The position numbers and the translations under genes are program-made. 64,000 nucleotides of DNA from Arenicellales bacterium (GTDB lineage: Bacteria; Pseudomonadota; Gammaproteobacteria; Arenicellales; Poriferihabitantaceae), in assembly GCA_965116595.1 (NCBI GenBank), contig OZ220708.1, positions 1,078,875 to 1,142,874 of the forward strand, read 5' to 3'. The notes under the pieces are model-generated. The model was not told the DNA's origin, did not search any database, and was given only the letters and a program-made list of their open reading frames with translations. Positions 30,825 through 50,632 of the stretch are shown here, piece after piece (position 1 is the stretch's first letter; each line of letters starts with the position of its first letter).

Positions 30825-30825
30825 G

Positions 30826-34575: not shown

Positions 34576-35738
34576 CCAGCCCGGTCTATCTCGATCACAA
34601 CGCTTCGACACCAATGGACTCCGTCGTCATCGACGTGATGACGGAGGCCATTCGCACCCATTTTGCCAATCCGTCGAGCGGTGAACATGCGGCTGGTGCT
34701 GCCGCCTCTCAGGCAGTCGAACATGCTCGGGGAACCATCGCAAAGGCCATCGGCGCCCGTCCGACGGAGATCATCTTCTGCAGTGGATCAACGGAAGCGA
34801 ACAATTTGGCACTCATGGGGGCATTCCCTGATTTGAAGGCAAAAGGAAAGACCCAAATCATTACCTCCGCCATTGAACACCCGTCGGTCATGGAACCACT
34901 AAGGCAGCTCGAGGCTGTAGAAGACGCGGAGATCGTCCGTGTGGCGGTAGGTGAAGATGGTCGGGTGTCCCCAGGTGCAATCGAAGAAGTCCTAGGCAAG
35001 AACACCGGCCTGGTAACTATCATGGCAGCGAACAACGAGACCGGGATTCTCCAACCCATCGATCAGATTGGCGCCCTCTGTACAGAGCGCAATATCCTAT
35101 TCCATACGGACTATTCGCAGGCTACCGCCTACCGTGCGCTCGATGTCCTAGCAGCCAATGTTCATCTTGCGAGTTTCTCTGGGCACAAAATGTACGGGCC
35201 GAAGGGCATCGGGATCCTTTATCGGCGCTTACGAAAACCGCGCGTGGAAATCACGTCCATCATTCACGGCGGCGGCCAGGAGCGAGGCCTACGATCAGGC
35301 ACCTTGAATACGCCAGCGATTGTCGCTTTGGGGGCAGCGTTTGAACAAGTCATCCGGTTTCGCGCTAAGGATGTGGAGACCATTGCGGAACGACGTGATG
35401 AACTCGTTGATGGATTGCTCCAGATTGGGGGAGTCTACACAAACGGTGACCGCGCCCAGGTCTTGCCGAACACGGTTTCGCTTTCGGTGGAAGACATCGA
35501 ACCGCTAGCATTGATGCGTTTGTTGAAGAATGAAGTCGTATTCTCCGCATCGAGTGCATGTTCAACGGACCGCATAGAAACGTCTCACGTGCTGAAGTGT
35601 ATGCTTGGCGACACGCTGCGGGCGCGTCAGGCATTTCGATTGGGTCTTGGGCGCGGTACCACCGATGCGGATATTGAGCGGGCAGTCTCCGCGTTCACGT
35701 GGGGCGTCACCCGACTTCGATCAGGACGCTTAACCTGA
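34572..35738 (+). CDS. dndA: cysteine desulfurase DndA (NifS/IscS-like)
   Basis: 388 aa. It reads VYLDHNASTP, SGHKMYGPKGIG (PLP lysine) and SASSACS (catalytic Cys loop). Confidence 0.9.
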   Translation: MTSPVYLDHNASTPMDSVVIDVMTEAIRTHFANPSSGEHAAGAAASQAVEHARGTIAKAIGARPTEIIFCSGSTEANNLALMGAFPDLKAKGKTQIITSAIEHPSVMEPLRQLEAVEDAEIVRVAVGEDGRVSPGAIEEVLGKNTGLVTIMAANNETGILQPIDQIGALCTERNILFHTDYSQATAYRALDVLAANVHLASFSGHKMYGPKGIGILYRRLRKPRVEITSIIHGGGQERGLRSGTLNTPAIVALGAAFEQVIRFRAKDVETIAERRDELVDGLLQIGGVYTNGDRAQVLPNTVSLSVEDIEPLALMRLLKNEVVFSASSACSTDRIETSHVLKCMLGDTLRARQAFRLGLGRGTTDADIERAVSAFTWGVTRLRSGRLT

Positions 35739-36212
35739 AACGGTGTCGTCGCCAGACCGCCAAAGATCGGCATAGGCAACGAGGAATTCATCGACGCTGC
35801 GGGGTCCACCCATGGCGTCCCGGAGGATTTCGAACCCTTTAGCTGCGTAACGGTTCATGAACCTTACCCCGTCCTCGCTCAGACCCAAAGGAGAGCGAGG
35901 GTCGAGCAGTTTGACGGTCTCCTTCTCGATTAGATCGCGGTTATTCGAATCGAGCTTGCGCCTGCGGATTTCCGCCTCAACTAAGAGCCCGAGCAGGTAA
36001 CTGTCATAGGCTTGGTAGGCCTCTGGATACTTCGCGCCAGCCGCAATGAAAGGCTGCATAAACTGGGAGTCGCTCGCCATCTGACCAGCGCGAAGCCCCA
36101 GCATGAGGCATGAGTAGAATTTGTCGATGTCCAGGAACCGAACACCTTTAATCGAGTGATCATGGATCTTGGAAAAAAACGCGTCCGCGTCTTCGGTCAA
36201 CCGGAGGCTCAT
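35730..36212 (-). CDS. hypothetical protein, last gene of the convergent 4-gene module (PbeD-like position)
   Basis: 160 aa with no motif I recognise. Its start overlaps the upstream stop by 4 nt, and its 3' end overlaps the dndA stop by 9 nt. Confidence 0.6.
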   Translation of the reverse strand: MSLRLTEDADAFFSKIHDHSIKGVRFLDIDKFYSCLMLGLRAGQMASDSQFMQPFIAAGAKYPEAYQAYDSYLLGLLVEAEIRRRKLDSNNRDLIEKETVKLLDPRSPLGLSEDGVRFMNRYAAKGFEILRDAMGGPRSVDEFLVAYADLWRSGDDTVSG

Positions 36213-38161
36213 GTGGTTTCCCCATCGGTCGTTTGGCGTCTGAATTCTTCAAGTCCATAATGGGTCTCGACACGTCCATTCGCAGTTTGTCTAAGCGTGA
36301 TGAACTGTGCGTCTTCACGCTCGTAAAAATTCTCTGCAAAGGCAGCTTGTTCGCTTGAAATCACAAACAGGATCATCTGTTCGAACAACGTTGGAATGAC
36401 GCGGCTGACCTCTTCGCGCACCTCAAGATCGAGCGAGACGGCCGGACTGTCAACGATGAAAGGCAATTCAAATGGCGCCTTTGAAAGAAGGGCCGTCAGG
36501 AAGGCGTATGCGACCGACAGGCTCTGTCCCTCGCTCACATCGTCCTTACTCGACGCTTTGTTTGAACTCAGTTCCAACGCGCCGTCGATCCGTTCAACAC
36601 GAAGGTCTTCCATCTGAACAAGGGTTGCGAGCCGATCATTGGTTTCTTTACGAATGACTTCGCGCAGGCCTGTTAGCGCCTTTGCCTCGACACGCTCCAG
36701 CTGATCAAGGAGTCGGTCGCGCCGCAGTGACAGATGATAGGAGGCTTCAACCTCATCAAGGGTCGCTTTGCAGTCATCGCAATATCGGCGGGCAAGCGGG
36801 ATATTGGTTCTTTTGGTGCATTGGTGCGCCCTCTGTTTCACTGGATCAGCAGTTTCAAGACCTCCAATCTCTGTTTCAAGCGCCGTCAGTTTGACCTTTA
36901 TTTCACCTTCTCGCTCCGTGAGCGGGCGCATATCCTCATCACCGCGTTCTTCGGCCTCCAGTTTCAAACGCGCCATCGCCTTCTCATTGGCTTGGCGATC
37001 TTCTAGCTTCTCTTGAAGGATTTCGCAGGAGTCGAGAAAGCTAGTCTCGGTCGCCGCACTAGAATTGAGGCGTTCTTTCATGGTCGCGATAGCAGATATC
37101 TGATCCTGCGCCAGATATTGTTCCTTTCGCTGGATAAGCACAGCGCGTTCCGCCGGTCCGATTGGTCGACCGCAGATGCACTCGCCTTCGTCAGCAACCT
37201 CCTCGAAAAAGTCCGAAGATACGCTTTTCGGGAGCCGCGCCCGAGTCAAGGTTGCCCCAAGATCCGTGAGGCAAGACGTAATAACCGATGAAAGCGTGGC
37301 GGGATTTCGATAAGCCAGGATTGCTTGGCTTGTCGATGACTGAATATCGCCAGCAAGATCTTCGGCTTCGGCAACCAGCTTAATACGGCGTTTCTCTAGG
37401 TCGCCGTTACGCGCAATGTGTGACTCAATTTCCGTGCGGACCCCTTCCAGTACTTTTTCGAGTTCGACGTAAGCGGATCTTTTTTCTCTCAGAGATTCTT
37501 CCAGTGTCCTTAATTGATGCGTTGCATCATCCACCAACTTCCGATACCGCGAAACTGCCTTTTTCGTTTTTCCCGAGGTGCGCTCCAAAGCATCTTGACG
37601 CTTCGTCACCACGTGAGCAACATGCTGCCGTAGAGTAGCGATATCGTCGAGTTGATATAGCGTTCGAATCGCGCGATCGGCGGCCGCCTTGTTGAGGTCG
37701 CGGATATCGCGCGCCAGTTCACCATCAAAAACGAATAGCCTGATGAACTCCGATTTCAAGATGTGTTTAAGGTCGGGAGGAAGAACCAATCCACGCTCAT
37801 GGCCACCACCGCGCTCTACGGCTCTCAAGGTCGAATACTGATAGCTCCCGTCTCTGAAATCGAAATTAGCGGTCAGACGATAATGGTTCGGAGGTCCGCC
37901 GCGTCGTCCTTCGATGAGCAAACCAAGTTCGAATACGCCGGTTTCGACAGCGTCACTGGCCCTAAAGCCGCAGACTTTTTCGGGGCTGAGCTTCTCCTCG
38001 CCTAGCACTGCGCGGATAAGGGTCATGGTGGAAGTCTTGCCGAGCCCATTCGGCATCTGAATGAGCGACCAGCGCGCTGGGGGATTGCCGAGCTCAAAGG
38101 ACTCAACCCCTTCGCCAATCCGCAGGTTTTCGCATCGCCAGTCCGTGATCCTAATCTTCAT
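36209..38161 (-). CDS. SMC/DndD-like P-loop ATPase (PbeC-like position)
   Basis: The start is trimmed to MKIRITDWRCENL. It has Walker A MPNGLGKTS, a ~350-aa coiled-coil region, the signature-like SEGQSLSVAYAFLTALL and Walker B PFIVDSPAVSLD. Confidence 0.8.
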   Translation of the reverse strand: MKIRITDWRCENLRIGEGVESFELGNPPARWSLIQMPNGLGKTSTMTLIRAVLGEEKLSPEKVCGFRASDAVETGVFELGLLIEGRRGGPPNHYRLTANFDFRDGSYQYSTLRAVERGGGHERGLVLPPDLKHILKSEFIRLFVFDGELARDIRDLNKAAADRAIRTLYQLDDIATLRQHVAHVVTKRQDALERTSGKTKKAVSRYRKLVDDATHQLRTLEESLREKRSAYVELEKVLEGVRTEIESHIARNGDLEKRRIKLVAEAEDLAGDIQSSTSQAILAYRNPATLSSVITSCLTDLGATLTRARLPKSVSSDFFEEVADEGECICGRPIGPAERAVLIQRKEQYLAQDQISAIATMKERLNSSAATETSFLDSCEILQEKLEDRQANEKAMARLKLEAEERGDEDMRPLTEREGEIKVKLTALETEIGGLETADPVKQRAHQCTKRTNIPLARRYCDDCKATLDEVEASYHLSLRRDRLLDQLERVEAKALTGLREVIRKETNDRLATLVQMEDLRVERIDGALELSSNKASSKDDVSEGQSLSVAYAFLTALLSKAPFELPFIVDSPAVSLDLEVREEVSRVIPTLFEQMILFVISSEQAAFAENFYEREDAQFITLRQTANGRVETHYGLEEFRRQTTDGETT

Positions 38162-38333
38162 CTGTGCGATCCCCAACATCGATTTGGTCCAAAAGATCGT
38201 GAATGTCGGATGGATCGAGATTGTCGAGCATCGCATTCTCGATAAGTGCCGCTAACGCATTCTTATAAGTCTCGTCCATACCGTCTTCGTTGCAAACGAC
38301 CTCGACCGCCTCGCGGACTGCTTTGTCGATCAT
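38151..38333 (-). CDS. small acidic protein (PbeB-like position)
   Basis: 60 aa: MIDKAVREAVEVVCNEDGMDETYKNALAALIENAMLDNLDPSDIHDLLDQIDVGDRTDED. GGAGG lies ~10 nt upstream of its ATG, and it overlaps the next gene's start by 11 nt. Confidence 0.5.
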   Translation of the reverse strand: MIDKAVREAVEVVCNEDGMDETYKNALAALIENAMLDNLDPSDIHDLLDQIDVGDRTDED

Positions 38334-38359
38334 GATGAATTGGCCTCCACACTCTCCAT

Positions 38360-40318
38360 TCAAACCGCCGCCAGCCCTTGAAACCAAGCGCGCCGCTTGT
38401 CGTCTGTCGACAAAGGTGCATCGGGCGGCAGTGGCTCATCGTCATCGTAGGTCCTGATGAAATCGACGACCGTTGCGCGCTTGTTCCTGTTTTTGGGATC
38501 GATTCGAAGGCATCGTCCAACCCGCTGTACGGTTTCGATTGGTGCCTTTGCGGTCGCGAACAGCACGATGTTGTTTACGGACTGGATATCAATACCCTCA
38601 GAAATTCGCTTGCAGGCAATAAGACAATCTAGCTCGCCTCGGGCAAAGCGTTTAAGATTTTCCCGGTCATCATCACCGTAATATGTATGATAATCAATCC
38701 GCTCTTGCAGCAAAAGTGGTTGCAGTAGTAATCCGTAATCAGCCTGTTCGACAAACAAGATGCATCGTCGAAGGATACCAGGATTACGTGCGACATAGTC
38801 TTCAAAGAGCGGAACCTTCTCCTTGGATAGCTTCTTAATCCGAGCGAGGTCCATGTAGAGCTGCTTGCGATCAGTATCACCGTCGGATTCACGTCCGTGC
38901 TGCCGAACGAAAGCAGCTTGTACCTCGGCTCGATCATCGTCAGAGTACTGAAACTCAATGGGGTGGTAATCCAGTTCGCATAGAATGCCGCGTCGGATCG
39001 CATCATGGATTTCGAACCGGAAGATGACAGGTCCGATTTCACGCTCGATGAAATCGTTCCCTTCGTCGTCGTATTCGCGCGTTGGAGTCGCACTCAGTCC
39101 TAATCGGTAGGGGAATTGCCTAAGTTTTTCATTTAGAGATGTGACCAAGCTGCTTTCGCCGAAACCGTGTACCTCGTCGCAAATGATTAGTGTTTCCGAA
39201 ATACGTTTCGGTGATAAGCGAGGAATGATATCAGCGAGCTTGCGACGGTTCGTTAACAGGCAGGCAGGCCGCTTCGACAGCCGGAACTTGTCAGCCTCGT
39301 AATAGTTTCCGTAGGCTCGATAAACCAAGTCGACCTGATCATGCTTAACAAGTTCGCCGTACCACTGATCGAGCAGGTCAGTACCATATGCCGCGATGAT
39401 AGTCGAGCGTACGAGTGCGCGTTCTCTTAATTCGGCGTCTATTATAAGTGCCGTCCGGGTTTTCCCCGTGCCGGTTGCCATGGCGAGGACGCCGGCGCGC
39501 GCTTTCATGAACGCGGCTAAAGCGTCGTTTTGATGCCGCCACTTGCTCTGGGCCGAAAGCTTTAAGCGCTTCGGGAGGACGTAAGGGCGCACAGTCTTTT
39601 TTGCGAACTTGACGAGTCTCTTCTGAATCGCAGTAGGGAGTTCATAGCTACGCACATTTGGGTCGTGTTTGTTCCAGATCCGATCAAACGTCTTCGCTAT
39701 CGAATTTGCGTGAGCCGCATCACGGTCGTCCGTCCAACCAAGATGGATGTGCAATTTCTCGAAATTCTGGAAACCTCCGACAGTTTCGTTCGGTGAACCA
39801 TTGAAGGCGATGTAGTTGCCCTGTGAGTCTTCGAAAACGCCGATCTTTATGTGGAAGTCACCGCTAAGTTTCGCTGTGGGGATAGCGATGCGCATGTCGA
39901 GGAACCCGTCGGCGATCATCCATGCCAATACCCTGAGTGGTTCTGATTTCGCTACACCTTCCAAATCGTCGATCACGCCGTTGAGCGTGGAAAGTATCTG
40001 GGGGTCGGACTTAGCGTCCTCTCCCTGCTTCACCGCGCTCCAGTCTTCTGGGGAAAGATACGGGCTGGTAATGAGTCGCATTTTGCCGCCGTTCTCGGCG
40101 AAGGTTGCGAGGCCTTCAGCAACGTAGGTTAGCCACCCAGAGGTAAAATAGCCGACGCCCCGGTCATATCGAACTGCAGTGCTCATGGCGGGCATGTATA
40201 AATCACCGACAACATCATCTTCAGACGTGTCGAGCGACTCAGGGAGATCAAGATCACGCAGACTACCCGGCCCACAACTCTCTTCCGCTTGGTTTTCGTC
40301 GTTTTGCTCTGCCCTCAT
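38360..40318 (-). CDS. PLD-family (HKD) nuclease domain fused to an SF2 (res-subunit-like) helicase (PbeA-like position)
   Basis: 652 aa. It reads YDRGVGYFTSGWL and HIKIGVFED...AFNGSPNET (HxK...GSxN). The helicase motifs are I AMATGTGKT, II LIICDEVH and VI QRVGRCLR. Confidence 0.85.
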   Translation of the reverse strand: MRAEQNDENQAEESCGPGSLRDLDLPESLDTSEDDVVGDLYMPAMSTAVRYDRGVGYFTSGWLTYVAEGLATFAENGGKMRLITSPYLSPEDWSAVKQGEDAKSDPQILSTLNGVIDDLEGVAKSEPLRVLAWMIADGFLDMRIAIPTAKLSGDFHIKIGVFEDSQGNYIAFNGSPNETVGGFQNFEKLHIHLGWTDDRDAAHANSIAKTFDRIWNKHDPNVRSYELPTAIQKRLVKFAKKTVRPYVLPKRLKLSAQSKWRHQNDALAAFMKARAGVLAMATGTGKTRTALIIDAELRERALVRSTIIAAYGTDLLDQWYGELVKHDQVDLVYRAYGNYYEADKFRLSKRPACLLTNRRKLADIIPRLSPKRISETLIICDEVHGFGESSLVTSLNEKLRQFPYRLGLSATPTREYDDEGNDFIEREIGPVIFRFEIHDAIRRGILCELDYHPIEFQYSDDDRAEVQAAFVRQHGRESDGDTDRKQLYMDLARIKKLSKEKVPLFEDYVARNPGILRRCILFVEQADYGLLLQPLLLQERIDYHTYYGDDDRENLKRFARGELDCLIACKRISEGIDIQSVNNIVLFATAKAPIETVQRVGRCLRIDPKNRNKRATVVDFIRTYDDDEPLPPDAPLSTDDKRRAWFQGLAAV

Positions 40319-41176: not shown

Positions 41177-42442
41177 TCAGTCTCTACTTTCCCCGGCCGC
41201 GAGAAAATCGCTGTAAGCCTGGTCCCAATCGATGAACGGAAACGCTTCTTTGATCGCGTCGATAAATTCCTTACAGTTCAGCGTCTCGAAAGTCACGTCC
41301 TTGTAGTTCACATCGAGCTGCATCTTCTGAAGGAGATTCCGGGCTTTTGGAAAAATCCGTTCCAGTTCTCTGTTGAGCCAGACCCTTGCCTCCTTCTCCC
41401 CGATTACCAGAAACTGGCCACGCATCGCTTCAGGCGGATCATTGCTCACTTTCGGCACGTAATAATCAACGATTTGCTTCCGCGACTCGACGAGTTTTTC
41501 TTGCAATTCATTTTCCACAGTTTCCTGGTGGGTCTTCAAGTCCTTCCGAAACTGGTCAAGCCTTTCCTCAAGATCCGCCTTTGCAATCTTCAGCACAACG
41601 CGCCCATGGACCTTGCCGAGCGAGGGCGTGAAATTCCTCCGTATCTCATTCAGACTAATTTCAAGTTTTTTGGACGACAATCTGCCATCCTTTTCAATCA
41701 GATCGAATGTTGTCTTTAGCCGACCCTCAAGGTCCTCTGAACCACCTAATCTCTGGATGCTCGGCGGAATGGCAAGGCGGTGACGCTGAATGGCTGCACC
41801 ACTCAGCTTGATTTCGACATATTGCATGTACGCACTGTAAACACGGACTTGCCGGGCAACATCGAAATTTACAGGCGGTGCTTCCTCCAGACTTTTCTGG
41901 ACATTTTCGAAGTCTGTGTCCTCAACCTTTTCAGATGGCATTTCCACGGCCTGTTCGTGTATCCGTTCACGCTCCTCATCTGTCTTAGCCATCGCAACGG
42001 CAATGACCTTTGCACTTGGGGATAGTCGGGCAAGAGCTTCCTTTACCTGCTCTTCGGATAATCTCATCGCATTTTTTGCCGTGTCGGGTTTCTTATCCGC
42101 CTCGAGATACAAGGCATTGGGGGTGAAGATGTACCCGGTATCGTCGATGACCATCAGTCCTGTACGTAGACCCGATATTGTGCGAATCTTAATCCCGGCA
42201 TCCCGCAAAACCTTCACAGCATCGAGGGTCCCGAATCCCATCCGCATTACACGCTCATCGAAGTCGAGACAAACGGTGATCATATCAGGGCCGATTTTTC
42301 GGGCGCGAGCAGCGAGTGCCTCGGCTGGCTCTTCCTGTATTCCGGGTGCTGCATAACAGACGTTTTGCACAGCCCGCGTGATTTTACGCGCCAGTTGACT
42401 CGAATCGAGTGACAGAAACAGATTTTCAGGCATATCAGTCAA
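41177..42442 (-). CDS. hypothetical protein (421 aa)
   Basis: It is a long clean ORF. The N-terminal ~130 aa have a PLD-like beta-alpha pattern (ITVCLDFDERV...VLRDAGIKIRTISGLRTGLMVIDDTGYIFTPNA) but no HxK motif. The middle is coiled-coil rich. No confident family call is possible. Confidence 0.65.
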   Translation of the reverse strand: MTDMPENLFLSLDSSQLARKITRAVQNVCYAAPGIQEEPAEALAARARKIGPDMITVCLDFDERVMRMGFGTLDAVKVLRDAGIKIRTISGLRTGLMVIDDTGYIFTPNALYLEADKKPDTAKNAMRLSEEQVKEALARLSPSAKVIAVAMAKTDEERERIHEQAVEMPSEKVEDTDFENVQKSLEEAPPVNFDVARQVRVYSAYMQYVEIKLSGAAIQRHRLAIPPSIQRLGGSEDLEGRLKTTFDLIEKDGRLSSKKLEISLNEIRRNFTPSLGKVHGRVVLKIAKADLEERLDQFRKDLKTHQETVENELQEKLVESRKQIVDYYVPKVSNDPPEAMRGQFLVIGEKEARVWLNRELERIFPKARNLLQKMQLDVNYKDVTFETLNCKEFIDAIKEAFPFIDWDQAYSDFLAAGESRD

Positions 42443-42883
42443 GTTTTCTCTGCCAATATTCCTATCACAACTGCATCACACTATTTTTGGAGCAATCATT
42501 TTCGCGGAATGAATTTTACGTTGTGCCGGACGAAGTATCCCTTGTGAAGAAGATACTCCTCTACAATCTGCTCCAATATGTCCTCTTTCGTCGCCATTAT
42601 TTCTGGTACTCAATAGTCAATTTCAATTTCAGCCACAACTGCATTAATAAGACTGCGTATTCGAGAACGAAGTCTATCGGACCGCGCATAATAAGGCCAA
42701 TGATCGTCGTAATCTCGGTTCGAATTAGCCGTGACCGTGACCGCATCGTGACCAAATCCTATCTGGAGCGTGGATTTTGTTCAGGACCGTCTGTTCCGGG
42801 GTTTCTTCCAGTCCGCACCACAGGGTGAATTGAAAAGAGGAAGTGTATCCCAGGGTAACAATCTAGCGTCAAATGTACATCAT

Positions 42884-43684
42884 TCACTCAAGCCAGCCGG
42901 ACACCTTTAATTTCGCCTCGACAATATTCTTGTATAAATCCATACTGGCTACCTTTCCGCATTGTTTTGGCAGATCTATCACGATCTTCTTGAACCCTCG
43001 AACCATCTCGATCAGTTCATATTTCTCGTCAGTGCTTAGGCCCAATTCCTTGTACTTGGCTCGCGTGTCCAGATCGTCGCAGAACTCTTCGAAGATGGCT
43101 GATCGGGCCTGATCTGCGGTCATTACACCCTTGAAGTTTGGTGGAAGGGGAATATCTTTTGCATTCTCCAAGTCAGACCACATCTTGGAGATCAGTCTCT
43201 TCACCTCGTGGGTCTCCGTTTCCTTTCCGCGTTCCCGGATCCTCGCGGCAATGACATCCTTGAGTTCCTGCTGGGTGTCCAGCAACTTGCGCAAATTCCA
43301 CCTGATTTGTTTGAACTGTCGTATGTCGAAGGGAATTTGACCGACAAGATCCTCTCGACACATCCAGATCACCGGCTTTTTGTAGTATGCGTATCCCGCC
43401 TCGAATATCACGCTTCCCCTCAGACCGGTTTTGCGATCGTGGGTCAAATCGACGACCATCATGTCGGACTTGTCGATTTCAGCCAAAATAGTTTCGTCTA
43501 TCTTGTCTACTGCTGGATCGTGATCGACTCGGTAGGGCTTCAGGCCGTGGTGCTCCAAGGCCGGCTTGATCACGATGTCAAAGAGTTGATTCATCTCGTT
43601 TGTAGAATCTTCGTCGGACCCGAACCACATGGCCGCGAAGCATTGGGGTCTATCGTCACGTTCGATGTTATCGCTGTCATTCAT
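42884..43684 (-). CDS. nucleoside 2-deoxyribosyltransferase-like / TIR-like Rossmann domain protein
   Basis: The start is set to MNDSDNIE (ATG 43684, an ATGA overlap with the upstream ORF). The segment CFAAMWFG...IVIKPALEHHGLKPYRVDH...ILAEIDKSDMMVVDLT...SVIFEAGYAYYKKPVIWM follows the CF(V/A)xMPFG...DLT...NV.YE.G pattern of that fold. The C-terminal ~110 aa are unknown. Confidence 0.6.
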   Translation of the reverse strand: MNDSDNIERDDRPQCFAAMWFGSDEDSTNEMNQLFDIVIKPALEHHGLKPYRVDHDPAVDKIDETILAEIDKSDMMVVDLTHDRKTGLRGSVIFEAGYAYYKKPVIWMCREDLVGQIPFDIRQFKQIRWNLRKLLDTQQELKDVIAARIRERGKETETHEVKRLISKMWSDLENAKDIPLPPNFKGVMTADQARSAIFEEFCDDLDTRAKYKELGLSTDEKYELIEMVRGFKKIVIDLPKQCGKVASMDLYKNIVEAKLKVSGWLE

Positions 43685-44028
43685 CTTGTAGTGGGCAGAA
43701 TCCCTGTTTTTCCATACTGGTTGTACCTGTTTGATTGTGGCCCAGGCTGATTGTACCTGCAAATGACCATAACCCGGTATTCGGGCATCCTGACCAGTCC
43801 GAAAATATCCGGTTTCCTGTAAGCCCGCTCATGGGCTTTTCCCGCCCGGCCCCTTGCCACGGCATGGTTGAAATCCGGTTCCGATAGCGATTCGCGGCCT
43901 ACAATCCAGAGCTTGGCGCGGGGAATGCTATCACCGGATCCGGTAGGCCGGCGCCGATCGTGCGAGCTGAAGAACATTTGCGATAGTGTTTTGCACCGCC
44001 GACACAAACCCGGGACAGAGCGGTTCAA
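43681..44028 (-). CDS. doubtful basic ORF linking the two flanking genes
   Basis: 115 codons from a TTG. The TTG overlaps the upstream TGA (TTGA), and its own TGA overlaps the downstream ATG (ATGA). The composition is Arg/Cys rich with no motif, so this could instead be an untranslated spacer. Confidence 0.25.
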   Translation of the reverse strand: MNRSVPGLCRRCKTLSQMFFSSHDRRRPTGSGDSIPRAKLWIVGRESLSEPDFNHAVARGRAGKAHERAYRKPDIFGLVRMPEYRVMVICRYNQPGPQSNRYNQYGKTGILPTTR

Positions 44029-45050
44029 GACCGCCTCAGGTACCCCCGGGCAAGGAGCCGCATGAAAGAATCTCGACCGCAGAACACGAAGGGTACGTGA
44101 TAATTTTTCGAAAGTTTGCCCATCTGCTCTTTGAGGTCTTCTGAGGCTTCCGCGTCGGTAACCAACAGCACCACGGCAATCACCTGGTTCGCCTCGTTTC
44201 GCGAGCGGAACGCGGTCTCAAGTTGCTCGGCGACATCCCCGCCAACCTCGCCGCCATAGTCCTTGACCTGCACCGGGATTATCCAATCGCGATTCTCTTC
44301 GAACGGATTCGGTATCACGATCTCGATATCCGCACCGCGCTCGTCCCGCCCACCGGTATGGTGTACGGATACCGGGAACAGGGGCTCAAGCGCCGACTGC
44401 AGAACGCGCTCCCACTCTTCGCTCCGCACCGTACTTGGCAGATTCGCGCCGATCCGCTCCGCCATCAGGTTCAGAGGCTCCGTGATCAACTCCGAGACCA
44501 CACTTTCGGCCTGTTCGGCCGGTTCGACTCCTTGAGAGAAATCTCCCGGTTGCCGTTGAGCTTTAAGGATGGTGTTCAAGCATTTCCGATGCGGCGTGAT
44601 GTTCCACATTCGCGACTGACAGCGAAAACTCCGGCGAAGAGCTGCGTGAACTAACTCATGGGTGTTGGCTACGCCCCCCTTCGGCCCCACGACCTGCACC
44701 GGACGAATGTGACCAAAGTCATCGTGATTCCGGTCAATCCTGAAATCGTACTCGCCCGTAATCCTGCAAATCGTGAACAGCCCATCCACCGGCATGTTGG
44801 GAACCACGACTAGGTCGTTGACCTGCATGTAATCTTCTCCTGCACCGTTTCCCATCCGCCAGTGCCTACCCGCTTCCCGCTGTTCGGGCGTCAATTCAAC
44901 GCTGTTCGCCCAACTGGTTTCGATAACCCGAAGATCCTGACTCTCGTCCGACCCCCATCCCTGGCGCAGTCGTCCTGCGCTCAGCTCATCCTGTATAAAC
45001 CGCCTCGACTTCTCATCATCGCGGCACGTGCGCATTGCCCAATAGTTCAT
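44025..45050 (-). CDS. PUA/EVE-like N-terminal domain fused to an Mrr-cat restriction endonuclease domain (candidate type IV enzyme)
   Basis: 341 aa. The N-terminus MNYWAMRTC...GRLRQGWG...VNDLVVVPNMPVDGLFTICRITGEYDF...FGHIRPVQVV has a PUA-like reader pattern. The C-terminus GGRDERGADIEIVIP...WIIPVQVKDYGG is a D...(Q)xK nuclease core. Confidence 0.7.
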   Translation of the reverse strand: MNYWAMRTCRDDEKSRRFIQDELSAGRLRQGWGSDESQDLRVIETSWANSVELTPEQREAGRHWRMGNGAGEDYMQVNDLVVVPNMPVDGLFTICRITGEYDFRIDRNHDDFGHIRPVQVVGPKGGVANTHELVHAALRRSFRCQSRMWNITPHRKCLNTILKAQRQPGDFSQGVEPAEQAESVVSELITEPLNLMAERIGANLPSTVRSEEWERVLQSALEPLFPVSVHHTGGRDERGADIEIVIPNPFEENRDWIIPVQVKDYGGEVGGDVAEQLETAFRSRNEANQVIAVVLLVTDAEASEDLKEQMGKLSKNYHVPFVFCGRDSFMRLLARGYLRRS

Positions 45051-45058
45051 GCCACCTC

Positions 45059-45150
45059 CTAAAATTGTAATTGTTCATAACCAACCTGAACCGTGATTCT
45101 CCAAACGAATGAAGCCTTCCAGTCCCGGATCGGCATTGTCCATTCTTCGA
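45059..45150 (-). mobile_element. 3'-terminal remnant of a second IS256-family element
   Basis: It encodes ...EEWTMPIRDWKA. The stretch 45113-45143 is the reverse complement of 47236-47266 in the intact IS transposase gene, with 30 of 31 nt identical. Confidence 0.5.
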
Positions 45151-45485
45151 TGCGTTTGTCAACGTGATTATCAGAGCCTTGACATCCTCCCCGACCTGAA
45201 GGCCGGAGATTCCTACGGCGCTCCAAGCGCGGGGCATTGAGCGATGGCGCGGGAAATGCCATCGCCGGAGGCGGGCCAATGATCGTTCATATTGTCTGGT
45301 GCATCCAGATGGCCACCGTGACCGGCTCGGCCATCGTCCTACTGATCGCCGGGTTGCTGGTCGCCCTGGTGGGATGGGTCCACGGGATTTGTGTCATGCT
45401 GGGCTTCGGGGGGTGGTTGTGAGCCAGCGATCAGAGGGTGGCCGAATGTAACAGCTTAACAACATAACAACTAGCTGTTAAGGTG

Positions 45486-45734
45486 TTACTTAATCGACGG
45501 GTACCCATACTTCCTGAACAGGTCGTTTATAGCCTCCCGAAACAGCTCTGCCTGTGTTGTATCTTCCCCATGAGCGATCAGTTTCAACTGCTTTTTAACG
45601 GCCGGGTCGATATAGGTTACCAGGGTAACCGGCCCTTTCCTGGTGGTCTGGCCGGTCACTTTATTTTCGTAGAAACTATTAGGAAGTTTACCCTCACTCG
45701 TACTAGTCATAATCTCGAACAACTCTCGATCCAT
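45486..45734 (-). CDS. ribbon-helix-helix (ParG/Arc-like) protein, antitoxin-like
   Basis: 82 aa. The C-terminal half PVTLVTYIDPAVKKQLKLIAHGEDTTQAELFREAINDLFRKYG fits an RHH strand-helix-helix pattern. No cognate toxin is evident. Confidence 0.55.
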   Translation of the reverse strand: MDRELFEIMTSTSEGKLPNSFYENKVTGQTTRKGPVTLVTYIDPAVKKQLKLIAHGEDTTQAELFREAINDLFRKYGYPSIK

Positions 45735-46019: not shown

Positions 46020-47354
46020 GAGGGTGTAAACAAAACTGTGTAAATGGTCATCCATTATAATTTCTCTTTTAGGAGGAGACGATGACCAAGCCCAAGCGAA
46101 CTGAAAAACAAGCATCCCTGCTCGACGAGCTAGTGGAAGATTTCAAAGGAGACCCGGAAGCGATTATGGGTCAACATGGTCTGATGAACGAATTGCGGAA
46201 GCGCGTAGTGGAGGCCATGCTGGATGGAGAGATGACCAGTCACTTGGGTTATCGTCGCCACGACCGGTCGGGTCATGGTGGCGGGAATTCTCGCAATGGT
46301 CATTCTACGAAGAAGGTTCAAAGCAAAGACGGTGAATTGGAGTTGGAGGTTCCGCGGGATCGGAACAGCCGCTTCGAGCCACAGGTTGTGCGCAAAGGAC
46401 AGCGCTGTATGCAGGGTATAGACGAGGTCATCATTGCCTTGTACGCCAGGGGGTTGAGTACCCGGAGTATTCAGGAGGAGTTGAAGGAGATGTACGGGGC
46501 GGAGGTATCTGCGACCCTGATCTCGAATGTGACCCACAGCGTGCTGGAAGAGGTACAGGCCTGGCAGACGCGGGCTCTGGACCCGGTCTACCCGATTCTT
46601 TACTTTGACTGCCTGTTTGTAAAATCACGTCAGGACGGCAGTATCCGTAACCAGGCGGTGTATCTGGCTCTTGGCATCAACCTGGAAGGCGAGAAGGAAC
46701 TGCTGGGGATGTGGCTGGGTGAGACCGAGGGCGCCAAGTTCTGGCTTAACGTGTTCAACGAGCTGAAGACCCGCGGGGTACAGGACTGCTTCATCGCCTG
46801 TGTGGATGGACTCAAGGGACTGCCGGAAGCCATTGAGACCGTGTATCCGCATACCCAGGTTCAGTTGTGTATCGTGCATCAGGTTCGCAACAGCTTGAGG
46901 TATGTCACCTGGAAAGATCGCAAGCGGGTAGCCGCTGACCTGCGGGCGATCTACACAGCGCCTACGGTGGAGGCCGCCAGAGTGGCCCTGGGTGCGTTTG
47001 CCGAACACTGGGATAGACAGTATCCGGCAATCGCGCCGGGCTGGGAGCGGAACTGGGAGCGCCTGACGCCGTTTTTTGGCTATCCGCCGGAGATCCGCAA
47101 GGGGGTCTACACCACCCATGCCATTGAGTCGCTGAATTACAGTCTGCGCAAAATCATCCAGGGGCGAGGGGCCTTTCCCCACGATGACGCGATCCGGAAA
47201 TTATTGTACCTCGGGTTGAAAAACGCATCAAAAAAATGGACCATGCCGATCCGGGACTGGAAGGCTGCACTGAATCAGTTTATTATTCTATTCGGTGACA
47301 GAGTGCCTCTCTGACATGATCCACGACCATTTACACAGAAATCTTTATACCCTC
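46020..47354 (+). mobile_element. IS256-family insertion sequence (about 1.34 kb)
   Basis: The imperfect 30-bp terminal inverted repeats are gagggtgtaaacaaaactgtgtaaatggtc (46020-46049) and the reverse complement of 47325-47354, gagggtataaagatttctgtgtaaatggtc. It has a single transposase ORF. I found no matching flanking direct repeats. Confidence 0.8.
46082..47314 (+). CDS. IS256-family (Mutator-type) transposase
   Basis: 410 aa. It reads GDPEAIMGQHGLMNELRKRVVEAMLDGEMTSHLGY...RNGHSTKKV...ELEVPRDRNSRFEPQVV...DGLKGLPEAIETVYPHTQVQLCIVHQVRNSL. Confidence 0.95.
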   Translation: MTKPKRTEKQASLLDELVEDFKGDPEAIMGQHGLMNELRKRVVEAMLDGEMTSHLGYRRHDRSGHGGGNSRNGHSTKKVQSKDGELELEVPRDRNSRFEPQVVRKGQRCMQGIDEVIIALYARGLSTRSIQEELKEMYGAEVSATLISNVTHSVLEEVQAWQTRALDPVYPILYFDCLFVKSRQDGSIRNQAVYLALGINLEGEKELLGMWLGETEGAKFWLNVFNELKTRGVQDCFIACVDGLKGLPEAIETVYPHTQVQLCIVHQVRNSLRYVTWKDRKRVAADLRAIYTAPTVEAARVALGAFAEHWDRQYPAIAPGWERNWERLTPFFGYPPEIRKGVYTTHAIESLNYSLRKIIQGRGAFPHDDAIRKLLYLGLKNASKKWTMPIRDWKAALNQFIILFGDRVPL

Positions 47355-47725: not shown

Positions 47726-50632
47726 TTACCCGGCGACGCTTTTGCCCTGTGCCCTTTTAAACCTAATCTTCCGGGTATAGCCGCAAGCCGGGAAACCCGC
47801 ACATCCCAGGAAGCGGCCGTACCTGCCCATCCTGGCTTCCATCCAGTTGTCGCATTCAGGGCAGGCCTCGATGGACTGGCCGCAGTCGCGGCACTTGAAT
47901 TTCTCGCCGGTCTTGACCAGCAACCCTTCCCGGCATACCGGGCACGGCCGTTGACTGTACTCGCAGTAGGGATAGTTCGAGCAACTGTAGAAAACACTTC
48001 CATTCTGTCTGTTCTGACGTCTTATTAGCCGTCCCTCGACGCAGATCGGGCAGGAAACATCACGCTCCGGCGGCCTGCCGAAGACCGTGACGTCGTAACC
48101 GCCTCCAGTCAGTTCCGTTGCAAAAGAAGAAGGCGGACCGCCCTCGGCGAGCAGGAAGGTATGGCGTCTGGCGCGGGTGATGGCAACATAAAGCAAGCGC
48201 CTCTCTTCAGCGTTCGCATGCGCTTCCAGCGCAGCAAGCACCAGGTCGAGCAGCGGGTCGTCTGTAATTTCGGCAGGAAAGCCGTATTTTCCGGAATACA
48301 ATCCAAGCACCACGACATAGTCCGCTTCCAGCCCCTTGGACCTGTGCACGGTCTTGTACGTGAATTGCAGGCCGGGGTACTGTCGCACCAAGCTCGACAG
48401 GTTGGGTGGTCGCAGATGGTTATACCGTCCCAACAGCAATACGGTCGGGATTTCGTCGTATCCGGCGGCATCCTCAGCAATCCGGTCGAGCGCCTCTTTC
48501 AACAGTGAAAGTTTTTGTTCGCCCGGAAGTGCGATGTGGACACATGGACCTTCGGCCCGATGTATTGATCGGACCGTCTTTTGGATCTGCGCCGGGTTGC
48601 GCAGGATGAAGTCGGTGGCGACCGCGGCGATGCGGTCGGTGCAGCGGAAAGTGGTCTCCAGAGAGAGCCGTTCGCTGTCGCCGAAATGCTGCGAGAACTC
48701 CCGCATGATGCCGATGTCCGATCCGGCGAACCGGAATATGGCCTGCCAGTCATCCCCCACGGCAAACAGTTGTGCGCCTGGCGAACCATCGAGCAGCGCC
48801 TTCAGCAATCGAGCCCTGTCGGCTGAGATGTCCTGGAATTCATCGACCAGGATGTAGCCGAACGGACTGCGGTAGCGGCCGGCCTCGACATGCTCCGTGG
48901 CTCTGGCGATCATATCGTAAAAATCGATCTGCCCTGACTGTGCGAGCGTCTCCTCATGGCGCTCGAAGATTGGCCTGAACACCGCCAGAAAGGCTTCGGC
49001 CCGTACCCGATCCTTCATGTTCGCGGCTCGTTGCTTGACCTGTTCATGCGATAGCCGCGCGCCCTTGAAATACCGAAGGAAAGTCGCCACCAGACGCATG
49101 AACGGATCAATCCAGCCTTGTTCTTCCAAAGTGGCAAATGCCTCGGCAGGCGGGATCGGAGACAGGGTCACGCCGCAGGCCCGGAGTTTCTTCTCAAGAT
49201 TCCGAAGCAATGTACCGGCGGCGCACTCATGGCTGAAGGTTTCGACCAGGATGGTGCCGCGCTTCTCGTGCAACTCCTTTTTCCACGCCATCGACTCCAG
49301 GTACTCTTCCTGTGGCACATACGGAGCGGTCTTGCCTTCGGCGTCGATTCCAAAATGCTCGATCCAGATACCAGCATCCGGCAAAAAGAAGTCGGGTCGA
49401 TACGGCCCCTTCTCCGATGTGCCGGTCTCGTGTTCATAGGGACGTTCGTACTCGTAGTTGACGCCGTTGAGGTACAGGTAATTAGCGATCTCGCACTCCT
49501 CGAAGCTCTTGACCTGCTCTCCCTTCAGCGACCGGATTTCGTAGCGGCGGATGTAGTCATAATATGCCCCCCAGGTCTTGAACTCGTGCGGGCTGTGATA
49601 AGGTGCGAACTGCTCCCGGAACCAGGCCAGTATGGTTTGGGAGATACTCCGGTCGGCGATCAGTTCGGCGACGATTTCTTTCAGCAGACCAATCAGCGCC
49701 TGCTCATCTGCGGCCACCCTGGTCAACGCCGGACGCTGGCCCTCCACTTTGCCGATGATCGCCAGGCCCAGGCCGTGGAAAGTGCTCACCGTGATGCCCT
49801 GCGCCGAGGGGCCGTCGAGCCGCTTGCGGATCCGCTCCTCCATCCCCTTGCGGGCGTCCCGTGCAAAAGCCATCAGTAGCAACTCCGAAGGGCGCCGGTA
49901 GCCCCTGTGCAGCAGCCAGCCTGCCTTAGCCACAATCACCGAAGTCTTGCCGCTGCCGGCGGCGGCGATGACCAGGTTCCGGTCATCATCGACGACGACT
50001 GACTTGCGCTGCTCCCCGGTGAGCGGCCGTGACTCGATTCGATCGAACAATTCCTGCGACCGTTTCAATTCGTTCGCGACAAAAGCGGCGTTGGCCTGCC
50101 CCCGAAAACGATCAGGGTCCTCCAGAAAGTCCAGTATCACTTTCAGCATCCGGAATTCCGGCGTATCCGACAGCGCGTTCGGCCAGCAGCCCGTGAATGG
50201 TCCTGCCGCGCTTTGCGCTTCATTCCTGAGTTGGTTGAACGCACTGTGCGTCAGGTAAGTCGCAGGCTCTGCAAGCTGCGCCAGCCTGTCGCAGACCGAA
50301 CGAATTATCCCGATCTGAGGTGCAAGCTCCCGCTGCCACCAGCGGGTTCTGGCAATCTCCAGTGCCTTGACAAAGTCCTGTGCGACGTCTGACGACAAGC
50401 CCGACACGACTGACTCGCCACCGTCATGACAAAGTTGCACTGTGGACCAGATCCAGCCGGTTTTGATTTCGGCGGACTCGATCTTGCCAAGAGAGATTTC
50501 CGAAGAGCGGGATCCGTACTCCAGCCGCAAAGCGTTCGCATCCATCGTAACGGCTCTGGCGTACCGCGGATGCAGGATCGCGAACAGCAACGTCGCCAGT
50601 CCAGTACAGGCGACCCTATGAACTTTTATCAT
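47726..50632 (-). CDS. HelD (helicase IV)-like UvrD-family helicase with an inserted PD-(D/E)xK-like module and C-terminal topoisomerase-type zinc ribbons
   Basis: 968 aa. It has Walker A VIAAAGSGKTS, then ILVDEFQDIS and LLYVAITRARR. The insert is FEECEIANYLYLNGVNYEYERPY...YRPDFFLPDAGIWIEHFG. The C-terminus is CPICVEGRL...YSCSNYPYCEY...CPVCREG...CRDCG...CPECD...LGCAGFPACGY. Confidence 0.85.
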   Translation of the reverse strand: MIKVHRVACTGLATLLFAILHPRYARAVTMDANALRLEYGSRSSEISLGKIESAEIKTGWIWSTVQLCHDGGESVVSGLSSDVAQDFVKALEIARTRWWQRELAPQIGIIRSVCDRLAQLAEPATYLTHSAFNQLRNEAQSAAGPFTGCWPNALSDTPEFRMLKVILDFLEDPDRFRGQANAAFVANELKRSQELFDRIESRPLTGEQRKSVVVDDDRNLVIAAAGSGKTSVIVAKAGWLLHRGYRRPSELLLMAFARDARKGMEERIRKRLDGPSAQGITVSTFHGLGLAIIGKVEGQRPALTRVAADEQALIGLLKEIVAELIADRSISQTILAWFREQFAPYHSPHEFKTWGAYYDYIRRYEIRSLKGEQVKSFEECEIANYLYLNGVNYEYERPYEHETGTSEKGPYRPDFFLPDAGIWIEHFGIDAEGKTAPYVPQEEYLESMAWKKELHEKRGTILVETFSHECAAGTLLRNLEKKLRACGVTLSPIPPAEAFATLEEQGWIDPFMRLVATFLRYFKGARLSHEQVKQRAANMKDRVRAEAFLAVFRPIFERHEETLAQSGQIDFYDMIARATEHVEAGRYRSPFGYILVDEFQDISADRARLLKALLDGSPGAQLFAVGDDWQAIFRFAGSDIGIMREFSQHFGDSERLSLETTFRCTDRIAAVATDFILRNPAQIQKTVRSIHRAEGPCVHIALPGEQKLSLLKEALDRIAEDAAGYDEIPTVLLLGRYNHLRPPNLSSLVRQYPGLQFTYKTVHRSKGLEADYVVVLGLYSGKYGFPAEITDDPLLDLVLAALEAHANAEERRLLYVAITRARRHTFLLAEGGPPSSFATELTGGGYDVTVFGRPPERDVSCPICVEGRLIRRQNRQNGSVFYSCSNYPYCEYSQRPCPVCREGLLVKTGEKFKCRDCGQSIEACPECDNWMEARMGRYGRFLGCAGFPACGYTRKIRFKRAQGKSVAG

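Follow-up and report, generated by a model that had tools for sequence, protein, structure and literature searches.

Does a chain of overlapping reading frames in a bacterial defence island encode one composite defence system, or have unrelated genes come to lie next to each other? The question arises at a minus-strand locus in a 64,000-nucleotide stretch of Arenicellales bacterium contig OZ220708.1 (the whole stretch analysed is referred to here as the window). A preliminary description of this locus recognized a PUA/EVE-like reader fused to an Mrr-type nuclease (341 aa), a basic 115-codon linker and a 266-aa protein with an NDT/TIR-like domain, and proposed that the three are co-translated as a composite type IV restriction and nucleotide-processing system. 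We consider it highly probable that the locus is not a three-gene system and that two single-gene modules, each acquired horizontally and independently, have come to adjoin in a defence island. Within such an island, chained stop/start overlaps and suggestive domain pairs do not amount to evidence of a system. A single synteny check removes the composite-system claim, and this negative result is the one that matters most.

Two conserved genes and a non-coding junction

The elements between the two large genes, and those that precede the first of them, are as follows.

45135..45162, minus strand: sigma-70-like promoter TTGACA-16-GACAAT (10/12) upstream of the 341-aa gene, a consensus match only
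45054..45061, minus strand: Shine-Dalgarno sequence AGGAGGTG, 3 nt upstream of the 341-aa ATG, read from the sequence
44025..45050, minus strand: 341-aa ORF, ATG at 45050 to TGA at 44025, read from the sequence
43681..44028, minus strand: 115-codon ORF, TTG at 44028 to TGA at 43681
43685..44024, minus strand: non-coding spacer (junction) that the 115-codon ORF crosses by chance, as judged from the lack of homology at 43788-44019, the codon score and the lack of a family match
43980..43999, minus strand: weak terminator-like hairpin, 26 nt past the 341-aa stop, with a 6-bp stem containing 3 GC pairs
43685..43787, minus strand: leader of the 266-aa gene, common to its closest relative (locus L023; 95% and 81-87% identity, two copies there)
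42884..43684, minus strand: 266-aa ORF, ATG at 43684 to stop at 42884

The coordinates of the three chained ORFs, the overlaps between them (TCTTGA, with its TTGA, between the 341-aa and 115-codon ORFs, and ATGA between the 115-codon and 266-aa ORFs) and the peptide motifs quoted in the preliminary description are all confirmed in the sequence. The two large genes are real and conserved, with at least 210 homologues of matching length (~340 aa) for the 341-aa protein and at least 88 (~260 aa) for the 266-aa protein. The longest ORF in the frame of the latter starts at TTG 43762 and would yield 292 aa; because the homologues are about 260 aa long, the ATG at 43684 is taken as the gene start.

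The 115-codon ORF, previously read as a linker gene, does not behave as one. Its codon score is −0.09 per codon, as against a mean of −0.05 for a null set of 30 off-frame ORFs (100-170 aa, inside ~33 kb of well-supported window genes) and 0.13-0.38 for real genes, and its GC2 is 0.52-0.62 compared with 0.31-0.42 in real genes. Pfam, PADLOC, NCBIfam and PHROGs returned no family match. A search of 5.8 billion protein clusters found exact matches to both flanking proteins and none to the 115-aa product, for which there was one partial match (P0209) over 32 C-terminal residues, explained by leader DNA that both have in common. The overlaps themselves have simple origins: the start overlap is produced by the ORF lister, which opens an ORF at the first TTG that follows a stop, and the stop overlap is no more than the TGA that arises from the ATGA with which the 266-aa gene begins. 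The overlap chain is not beyond chance, and the 115-codon ORF is spurious, like many others of about its size.

Whether the middle segment, given as 260 bp in the preliminary description, is coding or a structured RNA was also checked, and neither holds: the codon score is non-coding, Rfam has no match in the spacer, and RNA folding gives nothing unusual (MFE z-score 0.20). The 232 bp at 43788-44019 have no blastn match in the window, the fetched loci or plasmids, and the idea that the spacer is a decayed gene or a known mobile element was dropped on the same searches.

The leader contains two 13-nt direct repeats in exact register (CAGGTACAAYCAG, at 43717-43729 and 43747-43759, 30 bp apart); within the window this 13-mer occurs only in the leader, with 0.11 matches expected by chance. 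Together with the duplication of the leader in L023, the repeats are consistent with control of the 266-aa gene by a small protein or regulatory RNA peculiar to this lineage, such as an antitoxin-like element. We regard such a regulator as very improbable, given the Rfam and folding results, a middle part that matched nothing searched, and a leader that is conserved with L023 alone and not with the other relatives compared (L025-L028). Besides its duplicated leader, L023 carries an integrase followed by a same-strand run of small ORFs, an arrangement that prompted the idea of an integron cassette; it was dropped because the spacer has no attC-like inverted repeats.

Linkage and module boundaries

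Across 33 related loci, the nuclease family is found in 20 and the NDT-like family or its domain relatives in 13, and no locus carries both. Neighbouring genes differ from locus to locus, and none recurs across either family. Homologues of the two large genes are thus unlinked in the loci compared, the outcome that the preliminary description itself named as refuting its composite restriction and nucleotide-processing system. The same discontinuity is seen at the DNA level. Homology to L024 and L009, whose nucleases are 82-89% identical in protein sequence, covers 44020-45128 only and stops 5 bp past the nuclease stop codon, while homology to L023, which carries the closest relative of the 266-aa protein (89% identical), covers ~42669-43787 only and begins at 43764/43787, that is, 80-100 bp before the 266-aa ATG. 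Relatives of either gene at 82-89% identity have neither the partner gene nor the linker sequence. The 340-bp non-coding junction is composed of ~5 bp of nuclease-module tail, the 232 unmatched bp and an 80-100-bp leader belonging to the second module.

The upstream edge of the nuclease module is marked by the debris of an insertion sequence.

45110..45163, no strand assigned: 54-bp IS256-family transposase 3′-end remnant, inverted (blastn, 89% identical to 47215-47269)

The remnant peptide WTMPIRDWKA is encoded within the ORF at 45059-45262. An HgcC match nearby (45166-45263) reaches 27 bits, well short of the gathering score of 50, and was treated as chance. Both genes lie beside a Dnd-Pbe phosphorothioate cluster and IS256 remnants in the defence island.

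An alternative reading takes reader-nuclease, basic 115-aa linker protein and NDT/TIR-like protein as one translationally coupled unit. In its favour, the ORFs do overlap, by 4 bp and by 1-4 bp, all three share one strand, and the terminator scan found no strong terminator between the 341-aa and 266-aa genes. Against this, the linker ORF shows the statistics of non-coding DNA and is without homologues, neither the sequence that follows the 82-89% identical nuclease genes nor that preceding most 266-aa relatives contains it, and the two large families never occur together in the 33 loci. Co-translation as argued from the chained overlaps is not supported, and we consider a three-gene composite scarcely credible.

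A less demanding version would dispense with the linker protein: the two genes could be a recently joined, genome-specific pair, co-transcribed by read-through from the nuclease promoter and giving a layered defence in which restriction is followed by abortive infection. Defence genes are often found in clusters and may cooperate, and several features of the junction are compatible with such a pair. The genes have the same orientation and are separated by a 340-bp gap containing only the weak hairpin at 43980-43999, which is not above shuffle expectation. Also, the 266-aa gene has no obvious Shine-Dalgarno sequence, and no sigma-70 consensus promoter in its leader passed the scan; a TTGCAG-N17-CACAAT element (8/12) was read there by eye and was not called by the promoter scan. 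For the region as a whole, the two sigma-70-like consensus sites compare with 2.2 expected from shuffles. However, elsewhere each family stands as a singleton behind an upstream region of its own, there is no sign of physical or regulatory coupling, and the juxtaposition amid IS256 debris points to an accident of island assembly. We therefore hold a functional pair to be improbable and retain the reading of two independent modules.

Other candidate associations were followed with similar outcomes. A 421-aa downstream ORF was rejected as a partner of the 266-aa gene, as none of the 33 loci contains a homologue of it. The 266-aa gene of L031 matches in length only and is unrelated to the 266-aa protein of the window. 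On plasmid pNHAL01, a distant nuclease relative lies 1.2 kb from a 261-aa 'nucleotide-binding protein'; this is a CAP12-type TIR protein with no BLASTP similarity to the 266-aa protein and was set aside as a relative.

A probable PUA-like reader on an Mrr-type nuclease

The 341-aa protein is made up of two domains, as proposed in the preliminary description.

44556..45050, minus strand: probable PUA-like (EVE/YTH-like) reader domain, residues ~1-165 (order of strands and helices in the AF2 model, Foldseek, invariant residues)
44028..44420, minus strand: Mrr_cat/PD-(D/E)xK nuclease core, residues ~211-341 (Pfam, Foldseek, invariant columns)

The fusion is supported by an AF2 model (pLDDT 89.6), by structural matches, by conserved catalytic residues and by family-level Mrr_cat matches. 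In a Foldseek search of the PDB, the N-terminal domain matched the EVE-HNH enzyme VcaM4I (E 4.4e-3) and several YTH domains (TM-score on target 0.37-0.53). Residues R7, T8, R29-Q30-G31, G33, D79, N85, P87, F92, Y101 and H114 are invariant in alignment A1, and the invariant polar and aromatic residues of the domain include R7, T8, R29, Q30, W32 and H114. The Pfam EVE, ASCH and YTH models gave no match to the 341-aa protein at E<=1 or to 30 family members at E<=0.1.

The nuclease core matched the FokI cleavage domain (Foldseek PDB, E 6.7e-4), as well as EcoT38I and EcoO109I, and its invariant residues are E237, G239, D241 and Q261-x-K263-D264 (alignment A1). Among these, E237, D241, Q261 and K263 are invariant in 30 of 30 aligned sequences and constitute a catalytic D...(E/Q)-x-K motif on a restriction-endonuclease-like core. 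Pfam Mrr_cat (PF04471) scores 18.3 bits on the 341-aa protein (E 0.0027), below the gathering score of 21, and matches 23 of 30 family members, with a best E of 9.7e-8. Further, relatives of the nuclease carry the newer Pfam family PF28530. The nuclease family profile found no sequence relatives in the PDB.

Several known groups of enzymes provide a frame for this protein. A type IV restriction role has already been put forward for the EVE-PD(D/E)XK architecture (Bell, Wolf and Koonin 2020, PMC7641849; PMC6765204), and EVE-HNH enzymes such as TspA15I and VcaM4I (PMC6765204) belong to a wider set of EVE/PUA-superfamily fusion nucleases that are predicted or shown to be modification-dependent. 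The 341-aa protein resembles these fusions in placing a probable N-terminal PUA-like reader and a C-terminal nuclease on one ~340-aa polypeptide, in its stand-alone, defence-island context with no cognate methyltransferase and, as far as the predicted structure goes, in its likeness to VcaM4I and YTH domains. It differs from them in that its reader domain has no Pfam EVE match, and from the EVE-HNH enzymes in carrying an Mrr-type PD-(D/E)xK nuclease rather than an HNH one.

With the Mrr/Mrr_cat type IV endonucleases the 341-aa protein has in common the PD-(D/E)xK core with D...QxK and the family-level HMM matches, whereas its scores fall below Pfam gathering and its N-terminal domain is probably PUA-like. 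E. coli Mrr has an N-terminal winged-helix DNA-binding domain.

A third point of comparison is the PADLOC candidate PDC-S02 (model PDLC04815). Like the 341-aa gene it is a single gene of similar length, and the alignment is full-length (residues 1-310 to profile positions 1-303 of 346); however, the match is weak (28.4 bits, E 2.3e-7, with no curated cutoff), and PDC-S02 too has no more than candidate status. When others tested one of its representatives, cells were not protected against T7, T5 or T4. Because the HMM match is weak, the 341-aa protein may represent a sister family of PDC-S02.

We thus describe the 341-aa protein as a predicted, stand-alone, modification-dependent (type IV) restriction enzyme of an EVE-PD(D/E)XK-type architecture that is already catalogued; the window adds one more such PUA-like-Mrr protein. 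The PUA-like domain would probably flip out and read a modified base in invading DNA, which would bring the Mrr-type PD-(D/E)xK domain (D241, Q261, K263) to cut nearby. The gene has its own Shine-Dalgarno sequence and a promoter-like site.

An NDT/TIR-like domain with a helical extension

The 266-aa protein likewise divides into two parts.

43295..43657, minus strand: NDT/TIR-like flavodoxin-type domain, residues ~10-130 (Foldseek, BFVD, weak Pfam, alignment A3)
42887..43294, minus strand: conserved all-helical C-terminal domain, residues 131-266 (AF2 model, family alignment)

An NDT/TIR-like N-terminal domain, as suggested in the preliminary description, finds support in the fold matches, the AF2 model (pLDDT 81.5) and an invariant glutamate in a FEAG motif. 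The top Foldseek PDB matches of the domain are NDTs, DNPH1 and BcmB (E 5e-4 for NDTs to 2e-2, probability 1.0), which indicates a flavodoxin-like NDT fold, and the protein also matches the TIR domains of RPP1, SARM1 and TIR-STING (E 1e-3 to 1e-2). BFVD matches include NDTs, a CAP12-type TIR and a CMP/hmCMP hydrolase. The best HMM match is the PADLOC 'Effector TIR' model PDLC00733 (E 4.8e-14), and PHROGs 16139 (1e-17) and 3634 (2e-16) match as well. Pfam PF05014 (Nuc_deoxyrib_tr) scores 17.7 bits, below its gathering score of 28.8; weak matches to it occur in 22 of the 31 members of the family, and a 32%-identical relative from Bacillus mycoides passes the gathering score at 33.9 bits. No match was obtained with the Pfam TIR, TIR_2, CAP12 or DUF4062 models, and profiles A1, A2 and P0208 found no sequence relatives in the PDB.

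Invariant positions of the NDT/TIR-like domain are D79, T81, H82, G87, R89, E95-A96-G97 and W107-M-C-R110. E95 does not vary among the 31 members of the family or among 10 distant relatives of the domain, and it lies in a G-x-x-x-x-E-x-G-x-A motif that falls within the part of the protein aligned to PF05014 positions 47-98. The catalytic Glu of NDT and DNPH1 sits in this motif, and E95 may be the counterpart of NDT E98 or E88. The helical domain has its own invariant residues (H159-E160, D177, K212, Y222-E223, R229, G263-W264) and matched no known family or structure. The full architecture is present in only about 11 clusters at 50% identity (E<=1e-30), and in most of the 8,547 related clusters (50% identity) the enzymatic domain is C-terminal, whereas here it is N-terminal.

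Comparison with the NDT superfamily (PF05014; NDT, DNPH1 and the BcmB/MilB CMP N-glycosidases) shows a similar modelled fold (Foldseek probability 1.0, E 5e-4) and the invariant Glu95 in its motif. Unlike that superfamily, the 266-aa protein scores below Pfam gathering and adds a conserved 135-aa helical domain, and its family occurs in defence and mobile settings, not in those of nucleotide salvage. The affinity with antiphage TIR and TIR-like effectors lies in the match to PDLC00733, a CBASS effector model, and in the structural matches to SARM1, RPP1, TIR-STING and CAP12-type TIR; the protein differs from CAP12/Pycsar TIR and DUF4062 proteins in matching none of the corresponding Pfam models. 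Depletion of NAD+ or adenine nucleotides has precedents in the NDT-like effector of retron Ec86 (bioRxiv 10.1101/2023.08.16.553469) and in the DUF4062 protein 'Swarozyc' (bioRxiv 10.64898/2026.05.01.722283). Both resemble the 266-aa protein in combining an enzymatic and an accessory domain in one polypeptide.

On these grounds the second module would be an NDT/TIR-like N-glycosidase, with Glu95 in the motif of the NDT catalytic nucleophile and the helical domain as a putative sensor or oligomerisation module. Its activity would most likely be a trigger-dependent hydrolysis of NAD+ or (deoxy)nucleotides that stops phage replication, as in abortive infection. More specifically, the family may be an uncharacterised single-gene abortive-infection system in which the helical domain senses a phage component and switches on hydrolysis of NAD+ or nucleotides, a proposal that we put forward tentatively and with some doubt. 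The family would then be an N-terminal-domain variant of a very large superfamily (the 8,547 clusters), the other members of which have no assigned function. The window thus adds one member to a large NDT/TIR-like family that recurs among defence and mobile genes. Of the two genes this one is the more useful lead, as an activity assay on it could reveal what thousands of related proteins do.

By its genomic context, the 266-aa gene is a candidate for defence on its own. Of six close relatives, the window included, five are surrounded by restriction-modification, toxin-antitoxin, CBASS, helicase or transposase genes. CBASS, retron and Thoeris effectors differ in having an adjoining CD-NTase, retron RT or Thoeris partner; no CD-NTase, cyclase, ThsB or RT-ncRNA partner adjoins the gene in the window or in L023, L025, L026 and L027. 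In L028, a CBASS operon lies near the 266-aa relative, but it is convergent with it and interrupted by an IS66 element.

The chained reading frames and the DNA between them

The 341-aa, 115-codon and 266-aa reading frames form a real chain on the minus strand, but the chaining is coincidence. Their geometry, with TCTTGA and ATGA overlaps, is as the preliminary description gave it (ORF table and sequence), and all the peptide motifs it quoted are found in the sequence.

45162-45135, minus: promoter-like site of the 341-aa gene
45054-45061, minus: strong Shine-Dalgarno of the 341-aa gene, AGGAGGTG
45050 (ATG) to 44025 (TGA), minus: 341-aa gene
44028 (TTG) to 43681 (TGA), minus: 115-codon ORF
43717-43729 and 43747-43759, minus: direct repeats of 13 nt, CAGGTACAAYCAG, two copies at a spacing of 30 bp, within the 266-aa gene's leader
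43684 (ATG) to 42884, minus: 266-aa gene

The longest ORF in the frame of the 266-aa gene has 292 aa, from TTG 43762; ATG 43684 is supported as the start because homologues are 259-267 aa long and begin at the equivalent Met.

Module edges were set where DNA homology to related loci ends. Homology with the loci of the closest relatives of the 341-aa gene (L024 and L009) covers 44020-45128 and stops 5 bp past the nuclease stop codon, and homology with L023, which carries the nearest relative of the 266-aa gene, covers about 42669-43787, starting 80-100 bp upstream of the ATG of that gene. The 232 bp between them (43788-44019) have no match in the window, fetched loci or plasmids.

The spacer between the two large genes is non-coding junction DNA, and the linker gene proposed there is unsupported. 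The 115-codon ORF scores -0.09 per codon, compared with 0.13-0.38 in real window genes and a mean of -0.05 in 30 comparably sized spurious off-frame ORFs, and its GC2 is 0.52-0.62 (genes, 0.31-0.42). Among 5.8 billion protein clusters, which include exact matches to the window's 341-aa and 266-aa proteins, there is no exact match to its product; the sole match is a 118-aa ORF with 32 C-terminal residues in common, which is explained by leader DNA common to L023-like loci. Pfam, PADLOC, NCBIfam and PHROG gave no match to this product. The alternative of a structured RNA fares no better, with no Rfam match to the spacer and a fold no better than shuffles (z = 0.20). Only a weak hairpin lies 3' of the nuclease gene, so the nuclease and 266-aa genes may be co-transcribed here by read-through; their co-translation as one unit is not supported.

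Neighbourhoods of the two gene families

The composite three-gene system that had been suggested is likewise unsupported. Through genome, metagenome, plasmid and exact-protein look-ups, 33 loci were sampled, 20 with the 341-aa family and 13 with that of the 266-aa protein or relatives of its domain. The two families never occur together in these 33 loci, the nearest relatives included, and none of the loci has the 421-aa neighbour of the target. After the nuclease gene of L024 (82% identical) come Sel1 fragments and a ParE/RHH pair, and the 264 bp downstream of that of L009 (89%) are unrelated. Upstream of the NDT-like genes of L023, L025 and L026 (89%, 83% and 81% identical) there is no nuclease gene.

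Neighbours vary, and none recurs across either family among the collected loci. Near nuclease-family genes lie, among others, WYL-WCX regulators accompanied by AAA+ ATPases, a Cas3-like helicase, N6/N4 methyltransferases and a BglII/MT-A70 restriction-modification pair; genes of the NDT-like family have, for example, toxin-antitoxin pairs, GmrSD/HNH, a pair of SNF2 and DUF1156, a CBASS operon or ordinary housekeeping genes beside them. In L028 (7424-12780), a 66%-identical 266-aa relative is convergent to such a CBASS operon; an IS66 element interrupts the operon, which encodes a DncV-like CD-NTase and an E1/E2-like Cap2.

Some PUA-like-Mrr genes may be part of a conserved module of several genes, one that the window lacks. 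In three non-redundant loci (L010:5846-11017, L018:6659-10990, L031:2535-6026) the gene lies just downstream of a WYL-WCX regulator, accompanied by a 455-aa protein or by a double AAA+ ATPase of 711-742 aa, and in L013 and L014 it follows a 1397-aa Cas3-like helicase/HD protein. On the Nitrosococcus halophilus plasmid pNHAL01 (L029; NC_013958.1, 39901-44806), a 31%-identical relative annotated 'restriction endonuclease' opens a same-strand run of a 190-aa ORF, a CAP12/Pycsar-type TIR protein, an AbiU2 HEPN protein and an HNH protein. BLASTP gave no similarity between this TIR protein and the 266-aa protein of the window.

The leader of the 266-aa gene is common to L023 only, and the upstream regions of L025-L028 differ. 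Across the 64-kb window the CAGGTACAAYCAG repeats occur only in this leader (chance expectation, 0.11), and both are conserved in L023; as a conjecture, they might be an operator. L023 has two copies of the ~100-bp leader (6321-6433 and 7952-8118; identity to the window 81-95%), and a 47-aa ORF follows the second. The same locus holds an integrase and then a series of small ORFs on one strand; this suggested an integron-like array, which was not established.

The nuclease and the NDT/TIR-like protein

The domain calls made for the two large proteins largely hold. The 341-aa family comprises at least 210 proteins of ~340 aa. E237, G239, D241, Q261, K263 and D264 are invariant in a 30-member alignment and make up a PD-(D/E)xK D...QxK site. 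Pfam Mrr_cat matches 23/30 members (best 9.7e-8), the window protein at 18.3 bits, under the 21-bit cutoff. Its AlphaFold model is confident (pLDDT 89.6), and Foldseek against the PDB retrieved the FokI cleavage domain (6.7e-4), EcoT38I and EcoO109I, the EVE-HNH enzyme VcaM4I (4.4e-3) and several YTH domains (TM-score on target 0.37-0.53). An earlier catalogue lists EVE-PD(D/E)XK proteins as putative restriction enzymes of type IV (PMC7641849), and similar EVE-HNH enzymes have been characterised (PMC6765204). The PADLOC single-gene candidate PDC-S02 matches weakly over the full length (E 2.3e-7); one representative of it gave no protection from T7, T5 or T4 in E. coli when tested by others. 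We regard the 341-aa protein, with reasonable confidence, as a putative stand-alone modification-dependent nuclease. Its PUA-like pocket would recognise a modified base, its Mrr-type core would cleave nearby, and the host's own phosphorothioate marks would have to be tolerated.

The 266-aa protein has 88 homologues of ~260 aa. Invariant residues include D79, T81, H82, G87, R89, E95-A96-G97 and W107-M-C-R110 in the N-terminal domain, and H159-E160, D177, K212, Y222-E223, R229 and G263-W264 in the helical C-terminal domain. Its structure model (pLDDT 81.5) matches, at probability 1.0, PDB entries for nucleoside 2-deoxyribosyltransferases, DNPH1 and the CMP N-glycosidase BcmB, as well as TIR domains (RPP1, SARM1, TIR-STING). 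Matches among viral structures point the same way (CAP12-type TIR, CMP/hmCMP hydrolase, NDTs). Sequence models are consistent and weaker: PADLOC CBASS 'Effector TIR' at 4.8e-14, PHROGs 16139 and 3634 at about 1e-17, and below-threshold Pfam Nuc_deoxyrib_tr matches in 22/31 members. An NDT-annotated Bacillus mycoides plasmid protein (32% identical) passes the Pfam cutoff. In an exhaustive profile search the domain occurs in 8,547 clusters at 50% identity, mostly proteins of 310-360 aa with the domain C-terminal, and the full architecture in only ~11 clusters (E<=1e-30).

Glu95, invariant also in distant domain relatives, lies in a G-x-x-x-x-E-x-G-x-A motif that in NDT and DNPH1 carries the catalytic Glu, and is the putative counterpart of that residue. 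Tentatively, the protein could be a trigger-activated N-glycosidase that would hydrolyse NAD+ or nucleotides, with the conserved helical domain as a possible sensor or assembly module. This reading draws on the precedents of the NDT-like retron Ec86 effector (bioRxiv 10.1101/2023.08.16.553469) and the TIR-like DUF4062 NADase (bioRxiv 10.64898/2026.05.01.722283). The NDT/TIR-like family is the sole lead here that merits experiment.

The defence island and its insertion sequences

The window is a defence island, with the following features around the target.

28188-29144, plus: 318-aa HNH protein, just upstream of dndB
29688-30824, plus: dndB (PADLOC)
30739-32268, plus: dndC (PADLOC)
32265-34208, plus: dndD (PADLOC)
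34572-35738, plus: dndA (PADLOC)
35730-36212, minus: 160-aa ORF
36209-38236, minus: PbeC-like ATPase (PADLOC)
38360-40318, minus: PbeA (PADLOC, E 1e-186)
41177-42442, minus: 421-aa ORF between the target and PbeA
45110-45163: 54 bp from the 3' end of the transposase gene, inverted (89% identity), adjoining the 341-aa promoter region
45166-45263, minus: sub-threshold Rfam match to HgcC RNA
45486-45734, minus: 82-aa ORF, flanked by the IS256 fragment and the transposase gene
46082-47314: intact IS256-family transposase gene, upstream of the target
47726-50632, minus: 968-aa UvrD/helicase-IV-like protein upstream of the target, with two C-terminal topoisomerase-type zinc ribbons

The intact transposase gene and the inverted fragment just upstream of the nuclease gene indicate that IS activity shaped the locus. 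The HgcC match, which adjoins the fragment (E 0.0013; 27.4 bits, where the gathering score is 50), is probably chance. The 82-aa ORF has good coding statistics (0.29 per codon) and a weak NCBIfam match to RepA regulatory protein, and its C-terminal part looks like a ribbon-helix-helix fold.

The phosphorothioate cluster (29688-40318) is complete-looking, its minus-strand Pbe part convergent to the plus-strand dnd genes; no PbeB or PbeD model gave a match. The 421-aa ORF has good coding statistics (0.33 per codon), no significant match in Pfam, PADLOC or NCBIfam and one weak PHROG (E 0.003). The 968-aa helicase strongly matches PADLOC models of GajB and a DRT-associated helicase, and no GajA-like partner was seen. 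Further, PADLOC models of type IV methyl-directed restriction enzymes match the N-terminal part of the 318-aa HNH protein (E 5e-7), and this protein may be another modification-dependent nuclease.
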